Shown here: positions 26,898 to 55,139 of the stretch, one piece after another
Layout: every line of letters begins with the position of its first letter
How positions within the stretch are numbered: position 1 is the stretch's first letter
Sequence record: PZ154896.1
DNA length: 64,000 nucleotides
DNA from: a phage
Strand: one strand, 5' to 3'
Notes under the pieces: generated by a model
What the model saw: only the letters and a program-made list of their open reading frames with translations
Databases searched by the model: none
What the model was told of the DNA's origin: nothing
Position numbers and translations under genes: made by a program

Positions 26898-27179
26898 TTA
26901 CTTATCGCACTTAGCAACATAATTAGGCATATCACAGAATACGGAGCGAGTAACTACTCGGCCCTTTGACCATGCTTCAGTTGCTTGTCCGGCTGTGCTA
27001 TTAATATAGCTTGATCTAATGTTCTCAATACCCTGAGAATGTGATGCGTTTACCGAACCATTAGAAGACCCAGAAGTCTGGTTACCACCAGCTCCTGTAC
27101 TACCGCTGGCTGCACCCGTGGTAGCACCAACAGAGAATGCCATCATTACTGCGAATAAACCAATTACTAATTTTTTCAT
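26898..27179 (-). CDS. secreted Gly/Ser-rich protein
   Basis: 93 aa; N-terminal signal peptide MKKLVIGLFAVMMAFSVGA; low-complexity GSTGAGGNQTSGSS; two Cys near C-terminus. Confidence 0.5.
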   Translation of the reverse strand: MKKLVIGLFAVMMAFSVGATTGAASGSTGAGGNQTSGSSNGSVNASHSQGIENIRSSYINSTAGQATEAWSKGRVVTRSVFCDMPNYVAKCDK

Positions 27180-30051: not shown

Positions 30052-30354
30052 TTAGATAGATGTAGGCTCTAATTTTATTTTCATGAACTCGGCAAATTGT
30101 CTGGCAGTTTTTATGCCTTGTTCATGACATTCAAATGCATCATCACAGGGGCTATTTTTGTAATGCTTTACCATATACTTATAGAATTTTTCAGAATTCT
30201 CGACATTTTGAATTTCAAACAAAGTATATACGTTTTTAATCCCTGATTCCATAAAGTTATCAAAATATGGGTCGGTGTACGCAGTACCAACGATAGGAGT
30301 TGTTGCTGCAAAAAACCCCAGCATCGCCATGACAGCTATCGCTCTTAAGGCCAT
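30052..30354 (-). CDS. rI: lysis-inhibition regulator rI (periplasmic antiholin)
   Basis: 100 aa; strongly resembles T4 rI from memory (signal-anchor, DPYFDNFMESGIKNVY, conserved Cys pair). Confidence 0.85.
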   Translation of the reverse strand: MALRAIAVMAMLGFFAATTPIVGTAYTDPYFDNFMESGIKNVYTLFEIQNVENSEKFYKYMVKHYKNSPCDDAFECHEQGIKTARQFAEFMKIKLEPTSI

Positions 30355-31784: not shown

Positions 31785-32263
31785 TCAACAATCACAATTT
31801 CTAGTTTAGTGGAATACGTATCTAAAATCTCTTCGATGATATCCCAGTTTCCGCCACCGATACCTGCACCAATTCTTGGCATATAAATTACAGGCTTTGT
31901 TATCTTATTCTTTCCGAATTCATTTAATTCTATTATACAATTCATTAAAGCATAGTACTCAAAATTAGGTCCCGGCTCAAACTGCGTATAAAGATTAAAG
32001 CAATAAGCTTTATGGGTCTTAAAATATTTTTCATAAACCGAATAAGTCCCGAGTTTAGACTCGTCTCCGAATTCGGTTTGAAGTTTATCGGCTTCTAAAA
32101 TTTTTGGATAAGCCTTTGCTAATTGTCCTGCCACACCGGCGCCCATTGTATGAAAACAATTACACCCGTGAGCAATATTATTACCTTTAGAAAACAGGGC
32201 GACAATATCGCCCTTGATATAGTTTTTAATCACTTGCTGCAAGTCCTCTAGTATAAGAGTCAA
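31766..32263 (-). CDS. macro-domain-like protein (putative ADP-ribose binding/hydrolysing)
   Basis: 165 aa; GNNIAHGCNCFHTMGAGVAGQL and MPRIGAGIGGGNW resemble macro-domain glycine-rich motifs. Confidence 0.5.
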   Translation of the reverse strand: MTLILEDLQQVIKNYIKGDIVALFSKGNNIAHGCNCFHTMGAGVAGQLAKAYPKILEADKLQTEFGDESKLGTYSVYEKYFKTHKAYCFNLYTQFEPGPNFEYYALMNCIIELNEFGKNKITKPVIYMPRIGAGIGGGNWDIIEEILDTYSTKLEIVIVDWEPLL

Positions 32264-32573
32264 CTAGACGGTCCACCATAGAATTGCATGCTGCCTTATC
32301 TTTAGGTTCCGCCACCGAGCATTCTAATATTTGCCATTTTTTATAGTATCTTTTAATTAAGGTAGACGCCTTGAACCTACTAGACGCCCCATCTTTTTCT
32401 CCGTCTTTATACGCATATAACAATTTTTGTGAAAAATCTACTTTACACTCTTGACTTTTACCACAATAATCAGACGCCGTTCTGTTTGTATACTCCGTTA
32501 CATCAGTATATGTAGTATTAGCAAGAGCGCTAAATGAAACCAAGCCAACTATTAAAGCCAACATTTTGGTCAT
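32226..32573 (-). CDS. secreted Cys-containing protein
   Basis: 115 aa; signal peptide MLALIVGLVSFSALA; four Cys. Confidence 0.5.
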   Translation of the reverse strand: MTKMLALIVGLVSFSALANTTYTDVTEYTNRTASDYCGKSQECKVDFSQKLLYAYKDGEKDGASSRFKASTLIKRYYKKWQILECSVAEPKDKAACNSMVDRLVDSYTRGLAASD

Positions 32574-33112
32574 TCTTTTATTTCCAGTAGTTTATTTGAT
32601 TTAAGGTAATTAGCCTTTTCTAGGACTTCAGAAGCATATTTACTTCCAGCACTTGTCTTCCATCCCGCATTATATGAGGATATAGCTTTTCTTATATCCC
32701 CGTTATGTATATTTAACCAATAAGAAAATTCGATATAAGCCCATCTGGCTGAATTAGACCGCTTAGATAGCATTTTCTTAATTTGGGCATCAGTCATATT
32801 ATAACCAAGCTGGTTAATTCTTGCCCTCATTGTTGGTAGATAATTTTGGAACATTCCATACGCATGGTGACCTTTCTTATTTTTAAGATTAATACCGGCA
32901 GATGATTCCTGCCATAGTATTGCGGCCATTATGTATCCAAGTCCTTTCTTATGCATATTTTCATGCGTTTTAAATTTTCCATCCTTAGAAAACTGTTCCC
33001 CAAACTGATAAGCATAATTCAAGTTATCGAGTTGGACATTACTAAAAGTATGCTCGGAGCTATGTGCTGATAACGAAAGAGCAAATAGACCAGCGAGTAG
33101 TGCTTTTCTCAT
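32570..33112 (-). CDS. secreted lytic transglycosylase-like (SLT domain) protein
   Basis: 180 aa; signal peptide; LWQESS catalytic Glu motif, AYGMFQ, YNAG. Confidence 0.65.
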   Translation of the reverse strand: MRKALLAGLFALSLSAHSSEHTFSNVQLDNLNYAYQFGEQFSKDGKFKTHENMHKKGLGYIMAAILWQESSAGINLKNKKGHHAYGMFQNYLPTMRARINQLGYNMTDAQIKKMLSKRSNSARWAYIEFSYWLNIHNGDIRKAISSYNAGWKTSAGSKYASEVLEKANYLKSNKLLEIKE

Positions 33113-33120
33113 GTTTACCT

Positions 33121-33579
33121 CTAGATTTTAATCACTGCTTTAGAAGCTTTTCCTGGTAGTCGTTTACTGTTAATAATAGCCATTCTGCATTGAAGAGTCT
33201 TCATTTTGAATGCTGGATTTTCGCGACAAACTGTAAGTCCTAACCAAAGATTTCCATCAGTTATTTCTAAACGGCCTGGGCGATATTCGACACCTTCGAC
33301 AAAATCTTCATCAACATCCGGACGTGCCGGCATTGATAAAAATTCTGCAACTTCTTTAACATGATTTTTTACTTTACGAAATAATTCAAAAACGTAGTTC
33401 TCATCTATTTCTCTCTGGATGGCACGATCTAAGAGATGTTGAGAATACTTGATATGAAAGCCTGGTAGCCCAAGAGACTTTGCAGCATCTTTTACACCGG
33501 CATTTATTTTGCGGAACTCCGTTTCAAAGATTCGACGGAGTTTATTACGGCGGATAAAAACGTCAGAATTGATAGTCAT
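33121..33579 (-). CDS. regB: site-specific RNA endonuclease RegB
   Basis: 152 aa; about 80% identical to T4 RegB from memory (MTIN..VFIRRNKLRR, EITDGNLWLG, CRMAIINS.RLPGKASKAVIK). Confidence 0.9.
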   Translation of the reverse strand: MTINSDVFIRRNKLRRIFETEFRKINAGVKDAAKSLGLPGFHIKYSQHLLDRAIQREIDENYVFELFRKVKNHVKEVAEFLSMPARPDVDEDFVEGVEYRPGRLEITDGNLWLGLTVCRENPAFKMKTLQCRMAIINSKRLPGKASKAVIKI

Positions 33580-33596: not shown

Positions 33597-33638
33597 GTTG
33601 ACAGGTCTATAGTAACACATCTAGAGGAGAAGTAAACA
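33597..33638 (-). promoter_or_regulatory. early promoter cassette (GTTTAC-17-TACTAT) flanked by 9-bp inverted repeat
   Basis: CTCCTCTAG ... CTAGAGGAG inverted repeat; upstream of regB. Confidence 0.5.
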
Positions 33639-37891: not shown

Positions 37892-38173
37892 CTATTTTTC
37901 TGAAGCGCCTGAAATATATTTTTCAAGACGTTGTTTCATCAGCGAGCCGTTCTTAGCGATTTCTTCCGGTTTATCGCACATACGTAACAAGGCTTCAAGC
38001 TTAACGATATCACTGGTGCGCTCAAATTTGCGAGTATCTATCTTACTAGCAAGTTCAGAAATACGTGCTAATAGACTTTCAGCTTCAACCAAAGCTGCAC
38101 CTAGCTTAGTTGCAAATGTGTCAGTAGCTTCGTTAAGAATAGATTCTGATAAAAATTCACTATATGTTTTCAT
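37892..38173 (-). CDS. internal protein (capsid-targeting-sequence-containing)
   Basis: Start set at [10 protein letters not shown] (ATG 38171-38173), ATGA-coupled to lysozyme gene. Confidence 0.6.
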
Positions 38174-38658
38174 ATATACGCTTTCCAAGTTCCTGTTTTA
38201 AATGTTGAGATTACGCGTTTCGCGCGATTAGGTGTCTGACGATACCATTTAGATTGGGCTAGATTTACTGCCGCTTCGTCCCAACGTTTCTGTTGAAGCA
38301 TACGAAGAGAATTAGTAAAACCAGCGACGCCTGCTACACCCATTTGGAAGACCATATTGACCAATGCACATCGACGAACTGCATCTAAAGAATCATATAC
38401 CGGTTTAAGTTTAGCATTACCCAAGATTCCGCGTACGGCTTTATCAACGTCTTCATTAAATAACTTTTCGGCCTCATCAAGGGTAATTGTACCGTTGCAT
38501 TTACGTCCGATCATTCTGTCAAGTTCAGCTTTAGCTACGGCTAAAGACGGGTTCTTTGTTACTAAATGGCCTATGCCAATCGTCCAAAAGCCTTCAGTGT
38601 CTTTGTATAAAGTCAGTCTAAGACCTTCGTCATTACGAAGCATTTCAAATATATTCAT
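38170..38658 (-). CDS. e: lysozyme (endolysin) e
   Basis: About 85% identical to T4 lysozyme from memory ([27 protein letters not shown]); start set at ATG 38656-38658. Confidence 0.95.
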
Positions 38659-38692
38659 AATACCTCCCACATTTATAGGAGGTATTTATTAC

Positions 38693-52830: not shown

Positions 52831-53406
52831 TTGTTATTTACATTCTTCGACCCAATAGGATATAGTGCTAAAACAGTTAATAAGAATGCACCTACTATTC
52901 CTATGACAGACATATTTCGTAACTATAAAGAGTACTTTAAGCGTGTTGCTGCCAATTATAGATTACGTTCTTATTATATTAAAGGCTCTCCGCGTCCTGA
53001 AGAACTAGCAAACATAATTTATGGCAACCCTCAATTATACTGGGTCCTTTTGATGTGTAATGACAACTATGATCCGTATTATGGTTGGATTACATCTCAG
53101 GAAGCAGCGTATCAAGCTTCTATTCAGAAATATGCTAATGCTGGCGGCGACCAAGTTCTTTATCATATTAATGAAAATCGTGAGAAATTTTACAATTTGG
53201 TTTCATATCCGGACGAGCCTTTAGTGTGGTACGATAAAGGTGATGAAGCTCGTAAGTATCCGCAATATAAAGGACCTTTAGCTGCAGTAGATACTTATGA
53301 AGCGGCAGTATTAGATAATGAAAAACTTCGTAAAATAAAAATTGTTGCAAAAGAAGATATAAACTCGTTTATCACAGATTTGATTCGTGAGATGGAGATT
53401 GCATAA
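52831..53406 (+). CDS. 53: baseplate wedge protein gp53
   Basis: 191 aa; about 85% identical to T4 gp53 from memory. Confidence 0.92.
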   Translation: MLFTFFDPIGYSAKTVNKNAPTIPMTDIFRNYKEYFKRVAANYRLRSYYIKGSPRPEELANIIYGNPQLYWVLLMCNDNYDPYYGWITSQEAAYQASIQKYANAGGDQVLYHINENREKFYNLVSYPDEPLVWYDKGDEARKYPQYKGPLAAVDTYEAAVLDNEKLRKIKIVAKEDINSFITDLIREMEIA

Positions 53407-55139
53407 TGGAAATGATTAGCAGTAGCCTTAATTGGTTCGTGGGTGTTGTCGAGGATAGAATGGACCCATTAAAACAAGGGCGAGTTCGAGTTCGAGTCGT
53501 TGGTCTTCATCCGGCGCAGAGAACACAAGGTGATGTACAAGGTATTCCTACAGAAAAACTTCCATGGATGACTGTTATTCAACCTATTACGTCTGCATCA
53601 ATGTCAGGTATTGGTGGTTCTGTTACAGGTCCTGTTGAAGGAACTCGAGTATATGGTCATTTCTTAGACAAATGGAAAACAAACGGGATTGTACTTGGTA
53701 CATACGGTGGAATAGTACGTGAAAAGCCTAATAGACTTGAAGGTTTTTCAGACCCGACAGGTCAGTATCCGCGACGTTTAGGTAATGATACGAACGTACT
53801 AAACCAAGGTGGTGAAGCTGGTTATTATTCAAACTCTAACGTAATTCAAGATAACAACTTGGATTATGGTATAAACCCAGATGATACAGATTTAGCAAAT
53901 ATTCCAGAAGATGATGACCCTAATTTTACAATAACAGAAATGTTACGTCGTGACGAAGGTCTTCGTGATAAAGTGTATTGGGACCATCTCGGATATCCTA
54001 CAGTAGGTATTGGACACCTTATAGTAATGGAAAAAACCCGAGATATGTCTCGAATTAATAAATTGTTATCTGATCAAGTAGGGCGTGAAGTAACAGGAAA
54101 TCCGGGAACTATTACATTAGAAGAAGCAACAGCGTTATTTGAGAAGGACCTTGCTAAGATGCAGAAAGCCATTCGTTCTAATTCTAAAGTAGGTCCTGTT
54201 TATGCTAAAATGAACAGATCTCGCCAAATGGCATTAGAAAACATGTGCTTCCAGATGGGTGTTGGTGGTGTAGCAAAATTCAATACTATGCTTAAAGCAA
54301 TGGCCACAGGTGATTGGAAAACCGCATACAAATCTGGACGCGATTCATTATGGTTCCAACAGACTAAAGGGCGTGCTTCACGTGTAACAACAATTATTTT
54401 AACTGGTAACATGGAATCATATGGCGTTCCTGTTAAAACACCACCTTCACCAGGAGTTGGTGCTGATTTAGTTACTAGAAATACCGATCCAGAAGACCCG
54501 GCTGGTCCTCCTGTTCCTTTAGATTCACGCATCCTTTTTAAAGAACCGGAATCAAGTTATCGTGGTGAGTATCCATACGTTCATGCTATGGAAACAGAAA
54601 GTGGTCATATCCAAGAATTTGACGATACTCCAGGTAATGAACGTTATCGCTTAGTTCATCCAACAGGGTCATATGAGGAAGTTTCTCCGTCTGGGCGTCG
54701 TACTCGTAAAACTGTAGAAGACCTTTTTGACATCACTAATGGCGATGGGAACTTCTTGATTTCTGGTGATAAGCTTGTTAACGTTGGTGCTAACGAAATA
54801 TATTATAACATGGCAGACCGCCTCCATCAAATAGATGGCAATGACACAATCTTTATTCGCGGTAACCAATCTAAAACTGTTGAAGGCGATGGAACTCTTT
54901 ATGTTAAGGGTAATATCAAAATAGTTGTTGACGGAAATGCAGATATTCTTGTTAAAGGTGATGCTAAAACTCAGGTCGAAGGGAATCATGATTACACCGT
55001 CAACGGAAACGTTAAATGGACTGTTAATGGTAATGTTGATATGACTGTTGCCGGGGATTGGGCAGAAACAATGTCTACAATGAGCTCAGTAGCTTCAGGA
55101 CAATACACTGTTGACGGATCTCGTATTGATATTGGGTAA
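53406..55139 (+). CDS. 5: baseplate hub / tail-associated lysozyme gp5
   Basis: 577 aa; central T4-lysozyme-like domain (EGLRDKVYWDHLGYPTVGIGHL) and C-terminal VxGxxxxx beta-helix repeats; TAATG overlap with 53. Confidence 0.95.
   Translation: MEMISSSLNWFVGVVEDRMDPLKQGRVRVRVVGLHPAQRTQGDVQGIPTEKLPWMTVIQPITSASMSGIGGSVTGPVEGTRVYGHFLDKWKTNGIVLGTYGGIVREKPNRLEGFSDPTGQYPRRLGNDTNVLNQGGEAGYYSNSNVIQDNNLDYGINPDDTDLANIPEDDDPNFTITEMLRRDEGLRDKVYWDHLGYPTVGIGHLIVMEKTRDMSRINKLLSDQVGREVTGNPGTITLEEATALFEKDLAKMQKAIRSNSKVGPVYAKMNRSRQMALENMCFQMGVGGVAKFNTMLKAMATGDWKTAYKSGRDSLWFQQTKGRASRVTTIILTGNMESYGVPVKTPPSPGVGADLVTRNTDPEDPAGPPVPLDSRILFKEPESSYRGEYPYVHAMETESGHIQEFDDTPGNERYRLVHPTGSYEEVSPSGRRTRKTVEDLFDITNGDGNFLISGDKLVNVGANEIYYNMADRLHQIDGNDTIFIRGNQSKTVEGDGTLYVKGNIKIVVDGNADILVKGDAKTQVEGNHDYTVNGNVKWTVNGNVDMTVAGDWAETMSTMSSVASGQYTVDGSRIDIG

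Follow-up and report, generated by a model that had tools for sequence, protein, structure and literature searches.

The vs.1-vs gene pair of a T4-like phage: predicted export of a lytic-transglycosylase-like protein and of a four-helix protein annotated as a valyl-tRNA synthetase modifier

The phage DNA of sequence record PZ154896.1, a stretch of 64,000 nucleotides (nt) referred to here as the window, carries two adjoining minus-strand open reading frames (ORFs) that are, by orthology and family profiles, the known T4-type genes vs.1 and vs. The first (32570..33112) encodes a protein of 180 amino acids (aa), Vs.1, which resembles GH23/SLT lytic transglycosylases and is predicted to be exported. 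The second (32226..32573) encodes a protein of 115 aa, Vs, which is annotated as a 'valyl-tRNA synthetase modifier' and is predicted to be an exported four-helix protein with four invariant cysteines. The label of Vs, inherited from T4 genetics and biochemistry, fits this predicted topology badly. An earlier note, drawn from the letters of the DNA alone, had placed a pair of signal-peptide proteins, one of them a transglycosylase, at coordinates that proved exact. The gene pair is itself already known: both members are annotated genes, and public records already note the SLT resemblance and the export signals.

The window comes from the genome of a T4-like phage. The 2-kb stretch around the pair is 99% identical to Shigella phage phi25-307, the nearest record, and is matched by hundreds of Tequatrovirus genomes, T4 being among them at lower identity. 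Vs.1 matches PHROG 600 with an E-value of 1.8e-67, and Vs matches PHROG 1256, 'valyl tRNA synthetase modifier', with an E-value of 3e-35. The orthologues of the pair in T4 are vs.1 (NP_049725, UniProt P13311; 83% identity) and vs (NP_049724, UniProt P13310; 67% identity). Both phages have the order regB-vs.1-vs-tk.4, which is also that of the annotated T4 record, an overlapping stop and start between vs.1 and vs, signal-peptide-like N-termini and the four cysteines; the difference between them is sequence divergence only, of a degree typical for another Tequatrovirus lineage. The same gene order is found in Gaprivervirus VR20, Serratia phage CBH8, Klebsiella phage EI, Enterobacter phage MY742 and one Dhakavirus.

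Family-1 lytic transglycosylases are recognized by ES, GLMQ and AYNxG motifs. The motifs QES, GMFQ and YNAG that had been read in the larger ORF are present in Vs.1 as WQ-E69-S70 (in WQESSAG), G86-M-F-Q89 and Y147-N-A-G150, and lie within an SLT-like core of residues 61-154 (32651..32932, minus strand, the extent of the Pfam match), with the codon of the putative catalytic Glu69 at 32906-32908. Across 56 Vs.1 relatives, residues E69, S71, G86, Q89, N90, Y147, N148, G150 and Y159 are invariant; the segments G86-M-F-Q89-N90 and S146-Y147-N148-A149-G150 and the downstream Y159 are conserved throughout or nearly so. All three motifs (ES, GMFQ-type and YNAG-type) occur together in 58 of 70 distinct homologues. 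The Pfam SLT family is matched at E<=0.01 by 48 of the 56 relatives (best 1.3e-7), and no other Pfam family is matched by any of them. The AlphaFold2 model of Vs.1, with a predicted local distance difference test (pLDDT) value of 91, places E69-S70 at the end of a predicted helix (residues 59-70). A Foldseek search of the PDB with this model returned MltD, a GH23 chitinase, Slt, phi6 P5 and T7 gp16 as top matches; the probability is 0.96-1.0 for ranks 1-13, which comprise lytic transglycosylases and the one GH23 chitinase, and lower for phi6 P5 and T7 gp16. The identification of Vs.1 as GH23/SLT lytic-transglycosylase-like in predicted fold and motifs is well supported, and at the family level the SLT assignment is solid. 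The idea of a transglycosylase-type protein distinct from lysozyme e and gp5 is, to this extent, upheld by motifs, Pfam and Foldseek alike.

The resemblance of vs.1 to SLT proteins has been published for six T4-like phages, citing an earlier T4 PSI-BLAST result (Nolan et al. 2006, PMC1524935), and 'transglycosylase SLT domain-containing protein' is already the label in several GenBank records. Homologues of Vs.1 occur in 2,061 phage records and extend beyond the T4-like phages to Ackermannviridae and Felixounavirus; signal-peptide-like N-termini recur in the examples examined, the homologues of Salmonella phage S118 and phage wV8. No relatives of Vs.1 were found by tblastn in 72,556 plasmids, a search aimed at conjugation-type transglycosylases. 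PDB sequence searches, run with each protein and with profiles of its family, returned no significant match for Vs or Vs.1, the profile match of Vs.1 to EtgA being weak (E 1.5), and NCBIfam gave no matches.

With Slt70/Slt and MltD (GH23, SLT PF01464), Vs.1 has in common the ES, G-x-[FM]-Q and A/S-Y-N-x-G motifs and a lysozyme-like helical fold. In its build of a signal peptide and one domain of ~160 aa it presumably resembles the small Sec-exported enzymes of the EtgA/IagB/VirB1 type, which are specialised for secretion systems. It differs from the Slt, MltD and EtgA types in its marginal sequence similarity, a family-specific N-terminal helix and the invariant residues E128 and W132. Its gene lies in the early region of a phage and does not adjoin the genes of an envelope-spanning machine. 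The GH23 fold is also common to the N-terminal domain of T7 gp16 and to phi6 P5, but these proteins act from the virion at entry or at lysis and are without Sec signals, whereas Vs.1 is early, free-standing and predicted to be exported.

Export signals were assessed with a crude rule that combines a basic n-region, an uncharged hydrophobic core and small residues at positions -3 and -1, and export is accordingly given here as a prediction. The N-terminus of Vs.1, MRK-ALLAGLFALSLSAHS/SEH (the slash marks the cleavage-type site), has the basic n-region MRK and the site AHS/S; the rule test, conservation and low pLDDT delimit a predicted Sec signal peptide at residues 1-18, MRKALLAGLFALSLSAHS, followed by S (33059..33112, minus strand). 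That of Vs, MTK-MLALIVGLVSFSALA/NTT, has the basic n-region MTK and the site ALA/N, and the rule test and low pLDDT likewise point to a predicted Sec signal peptide at residues 1-18, MTKMLALIVGLVSFSALA, followed by N (32520..32573, minus strand). The hydrophobic core is uncharged and spans 13-15 residues in the two proteins, with 13 in Vs.1. Signal-segment pLDDT is 66-67 in Vs.1, against more than 90 in the domain, and 47-57 in Vs. The rule is passed by seven of the 191 ATG-initiated ORFs of at least 50 aa in the window, including vs.1, vs and the gene of the antiholin rI, for which a cleavable signal peptide has been shown experimentally (PMC8385771). Two other readings of the Vs.1 N-terminus were discarded, that of a signal-anchor-release (SAR) endolysin by the length of the h-region (13 residues, then AHS/S), and that of a lipoprotein by the lack of any cysteine.

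The signal character is kept family-wide. In both proteins, sequence conservation is lowest over the first 18 residues (0.56 versus 0.70 for the rest of Vs in 37 relatives; 0.44 versus 0.62 for Vs.1 in the 56 relatives), and these residues remain hydrophobic, with a mean Kyte-Doolittle value of about +2 versus -0.8 for the rest. In a set of 83 loci, the rule is passed by 55 of 59 distinct Vs and 63 of 68 distinct Vs.1 sequences, and the failures are mostly mis-called starts or near misses. In six Vs variants, one of them a remote profile match, a lipobox (LSGC) replaces the signal-peptidase-I site; because lipoprotein processing is sensible only after export, these variants argue for the export of Vs. 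From the positive charge at the N-terminus of Vs, the C-terminal domain is predicted to be outside the membrane. When produced in the E. coli cytoplasm, full-length N-His Vs was insoluble (PMC8076793), which fits a blocked signal peptide and unformed disulfides, although this is weak evidence. It is well supported by these comparisons that both proteins carry predicted Sec-type export signals of which the character is kept and the sequence is not, and the presence of signal peptides on both ORFs, as the earlier note had it, passes this rule-based prediction. Vs and Vs.1 are probably exported and cleaved in the infected cell.

Acinetobacter phage vB_AbaM_Kimel (Kimel) offers an independent observation in favour of export. 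Here vs.1, vs, two small ORFs and rI are contiguous (locus L009, 1738-3584), and its GenBank annotators have marked all five with a 'putative periplasmic secretion signal', giving a compact envelope-directed early block.

The AlphaFold2 model of Vs (pLDDT 87) is a four-helix bundle with helices at residues 20-37, 41-64, 69-85 and 90-113; its pLDDT exceeds 90 from residue 21, whereas confidence is low over the first 19 residues. The cysteines at positions 37, 43, 85 and 96 are invariant in the 37 relatives, and exactly four cysteines follow the signal in all 57 full-length Vs sequences. In the model, Cys37 and Cys43 flank the first helix-helix turn, and Cys85 and Cys96 the third, so that each hairpin may be closed by a disulfide (CX5C and CX8-10C). 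The predicted mass is 11.0 kDa for the mature protein and 12.8-13.1 kDa for the precursor. The smaller ORF had been described as an anonymous small secreted cysteine-containing protein; the predicted export signal and the cysteines bear out the description, but the protein is not anonymous, having long been annotated as a valyl-tRNA synthetase modifier. Among 1.84 billion representative proteins, a profile search gave eight matches only, all in T4-like phage contexts, and two remote matches among them lie on T4-like contigs that keep the regB-vs.1-vs arrangement. The antiholin RI likewise has a CX5C motif; BLASTP gave no alignment between it and Vs. Of RegB, Vs.1, Vs and Tk.4, Vs evolves fastest: its mean pairwise distance is 0.56, versus 0.29-0.42 for the other three. 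Truncated natural alleles of vs also occur (Escherichia phage vB_EcoM_005, loci L006 and L032; locus L047), one of 85 aa, in which an internal deletion takes out the first cysteine pair, and another of 65 aa, so that vs is dispensable or decaying in some lineages.

Valyl-tRNA synthetase (ValRS) is a cytoplasmic enzyme. Binding to it would require Vs to reside in the cytoplasm, and this is not the location predicted for Vs: every sequence feature of the family (the signal, the lipobox variants, the N-terminal positive charge and the four cysteines) predicts a periplasmic protein. The tau factor has a reported mass of about 10 kDa; if tau is Vs, this size would fit the processed form and deepen the puzzle. 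Vs owes its name to the tau factor, which binds the host ValRS and for which Mueller and Marchin 1975/1977 are cited in the papers that refer to it.

The genes vs.1 and vs adjoin closely in most phages. With a broadened hidden Markov model, Vs was found in 75 of the 83 Vs.1 loci, including Acinetobacter and Pseudotevenvirus phages missed by tblastn. The gap between the two genes measures -8 to +7 nt in 65 of 74 measurable loci and 0.5-1.2 kb in the other nine, and the pair is kept where the flanking genes differ, as in Kimel. In the window, the stop codon of vs.1 and the start codon of vs overlap in ATGA (32570..32573, minus strand), and the two genes are probably translationally coupled. A contact or partnership between Vs and Vs.1 may be considered on this basis.

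Early expression, which had been supposed for the transglycosylase, finds support in a conserved early-type promoter and in data from T4. Upstream of regB-vs.1-vs lies a T4-early-type promoter-like site (33609..33637, minus strand) that consists of GTTTAC, 17 nt and TGT-TACTAT (TGnTAYNAT), and that probably drives these genes; its GT.TAC and TG.TA...T positions are invariant in an alignment of six divergent T4-like phages. A generic sigma-70 scan, in which sites were fewer than in shuffled sequence, missed it. In time-resolved omics data, T4 vs and vs.1 fall into the early-RNA/middle-protein class (PMC9697503); both proteins are detected and hence made. Both genes are 'non-essential' in T4 on LB plates (HIDEN-SEQ transposon study). 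In liquid LB, mean insertion counts in T4 are 26.6 for vs and 22.6 for vs.1, roughly 10-fold fewer than the 179-767 of their neighbours, and in M9-glucose the log2 fold change is -2.19 for vs (adjusted p 0) and -0.87 for vs.1 (p 0.0055, adjusted 0.155) (preprint 10.1101/2025.11.20.689424). A T4 vs knockout plates poorly on minimal medium only. As a side observation, T4 insertions in regB are enriched in the LB versus M9 competition (log2 fold change +1.17, p 0.049), and those in the downstream vs.1 and vs are depleted (HIDEN-SEQ).

We propose that vs.1 and vs form an early, exported, envelope-directed pair in which Vs.1 would act on murein and Vs would serve as a periplasmic accessory, and we give this account roughly an even chance. 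The genes regB, vs.1 and vs would be transcribed early and together, and vs.1 and vs co-translated. The Vs.1 precursor would be exported by Sec, and the form released into the periplasm, of ~18.7 kDa, would be a single-domain family-1 (GH23/SLT) lytic-transglycosylase-like enzyme with Glu69 as the acid catalyst and the murein of the infected cell as substrate. Vs would be exported alongside and fold into a four-helix bundle of ~11 kDa with disulfide-closed hairpins, lipid-anchored in some phages. Its role could be that of an accessory that regulates or targets Vs.1, or it might act on another periplasmic target. The two proteins would thereby constitute an early, non-essential, envelope-directed module for modifying or handling murein in the infected cell. 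The more specific proposal for vs, that it encodes a periplasmic or lipid-anchored, disulfide-stapled four-helix protein working with or alongside Vs.1 on the envelope, is decidedly more tentative.

Several results weigh against this proposal. For the enzyme, the Vs.1 of the window scores just below the Pfam SLT cut-off (20.0 bits, E 5e-4; cut-off 21.3), and its Foldseek matches are modest (E 0.016-0.3, template modelling score 0.42-0.53). As to the partnership, Vs was undetected in Aeromonas T4-likes, Ackermannviridae, Felixounavirus and two jumbo contigs, all of which carry Vs.1, and the enzyme therefore does not need Vs. Mirror-tree analysis with RegB and Tk.4 as controls found the co-evolution of Vs with Vs.1 to be not beyond the RegB control (r 0.69 versus 0.74). 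The synteny of T4-like phages is rigid in general, so the adjacency of vs.1 and vs is weak evidence. The low insertion counts in vs.1 could reflect polarity on vs, and the transposon data do not separate partners from such polarity. For Vs itself, the classical modification of the cytoplasmic ValRS is assigned to the vs gene, and the minimal-medium defect of the vs knockout fits a translation-related role equally well. In some of the phages in which Vs was undetected, a different gene was observed at its place: Aeromonas phage Aes508 (locus L010, 2345-3103; also loci L070-L072 and L081) has a 146-aa ORF with a lipoprotein-like N-terminus (…LSVYGC) between vs.1 and tk.4.

The classical view, which keeps Vs as the tau factor altering the cytoplasmic ValRS, would have its N-terminus be no working export signal or one that allows partial export, with Vs.1 as an unrelated neighbour. 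We consider it possible, though doubtful. It agrees with the ValRS-modifier label of PHROG 1256 and of Pfam PF26829 ('ValRS_modifier'), with the ValRS binding that citing papers credit to Mueller and Marchin, with an aminoacylation role behind a vs knockout defect confined to minimal medium, with the unexceptional co-evolution of Vs and Vs.1, and with the closeness of the predicted mature mass of Vs, 11.0 kDa, to the roughly 10 kDa of tau. It is difficult to reconcile with a signal character that is kept from Escherichia to Acinetobacter phages, with the six lipobox variants, with four invariant cysteines at helix-turn-helix junctions and with an N-terminal charge that predicts the C-terminal domain to lie outside the membrane; moreover, no readable source was found that ties vs mutations or the tau peptide to the vs ORF by sequencing.

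Two further explanations accept export and assign other roles. Vs might be a periplasmic inhibitor, similar to Spackle or Ivy, that restrains Vs.1 from early damage to the cell, which we regard as unlikely. There is a precedent in T4, where Spackle (gp61.3), of 97 aa and helical, with a signal peptide and a disulfide, is a periplasmic inhibitor of the gp5 lysozyme domain (PMC7650644); Vs is predicted to be alike in general design to this small early protein, whose N-terminal signal is cleaved and whose fold is all-helical. Vs is also small, helical and, as predicted, cysteine-stapled, its gene is probably coupled in translation to that of the enzyme, and its loss is deleterious. If neutralising Vs.1 were the only task of Vs, however, insertions in vs.1, polar or not, should be neutral, and instead they are depleted like those in vs in LB and are lower again in M9. 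Many phages have Vs.1 without Vs, and Vs showed no fold or sequence similarity to Spackle or to the muramidase inhibitors Ivy, PliC, MliC and PliG. Slightly more improbable still, in our estimation, is that Vs.1 serves, after secretion, as an auxiliary endolysin by which lysis is timed or superinfection control is aided, the role that had been suggested for it at the outset and that is not supported by the evidence found. The predicted export of a muralytic-type domain would suit such a function, as would the antiholin gene rI, which is a few genes away and, in Kimel, is contiguous with vs.1 in a run of genes for proteins annotated as exported. Expression is early and not late, though, and a 13-residue core followed by AHS/S indicates a cleavable signal and not a SAR anchor, which is weakly hydrophobic and of 16-20 residues. 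The gene adjoins regB, vs and, beyond it, tk.4, with no holin or spanin adjoining, and nothing retrieved ties Vs.1 to exclusion. Lysis fails in T4 e mutants; Vs.1 therefore cannot take the place of the endolysin, which argues against an endolysin role.

Every gene of the region around the pair lies on the minus strand, in the order regB, vs.1, vs, tk.4, tk.3, tk.2, tk.1, tk, rI. The endoribonuclease gene regB (33121..33579, minus strand; Pfam REGB_T4, E 1.9e-68) stands first in the apparent regB-vs.1-vs unit and is separated from vs.1 by 8 nt only. The macro-domain gene tk.4, which directly follows vs and has been named AdfM/anti-DarT2 (preprint 10.1101/2025.11.20.689424), most likely starts at GTG 32233 (minus strand), with an 8-nt overlap with the vs stop as in T4; the ORF list has TTG 32263. 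Twelve nt past the vs stop lies a 7-bp hairpin, AGGGCGA-TATTG-TCGCCCT, followed by GTTTTCT (32196-32214, minus strand). It is kept in T4 and VR20 and lost in MY742, and in Serratia phage CBH8 it shows one compensatory change from G-C to A-U through two synonymous substitutions. The antiholin gene rI (30052-30354, minus strand) is ~2 kb from vs. Lysozyme e is encoded at 38170-38670 on the minus strand, and gp5 with its lysozyme domain at 53406-55139 on the plus strand; together with Vs.1 these make three peptidoglycan-active domains in the window, as had been counted. A 93-aa ORF at 26898-27179 (minus strand) has a signal-peptide-like N-terminus followed by a Gly/Ser/Thr-rich stretch and may encode another exported small protein; its YbgS-like Pfam match is weak (E 6.5e-4, below threshold).

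For the family at large, these comparisons describe an early, free-standing SLT-type protein, predicted to be exported by Sec, that is common to T4-like, Ackermann-type and Felix-O1-type myoviruses and is neither the endolysin nor a virion enzyme. The main residue of interest is vs, for which a 50-year-old cytoplasmic assignment stands against the sequence hallmarks of an exported, disulfide-bonded protein. Why the phage modifies ValRS has been asked since the 1960s, and a recent transposon screen makes vs the strongest minimal-medium fitness gene of T4. If Vs does work in the envelope, the ValRS modification would belong to another ORF in the rI-e interval, to the mixing of compartments in extracts or to moonlighting, and the minimal-medium defect of vs would be an envelope phenotype and not a translation phenotype.

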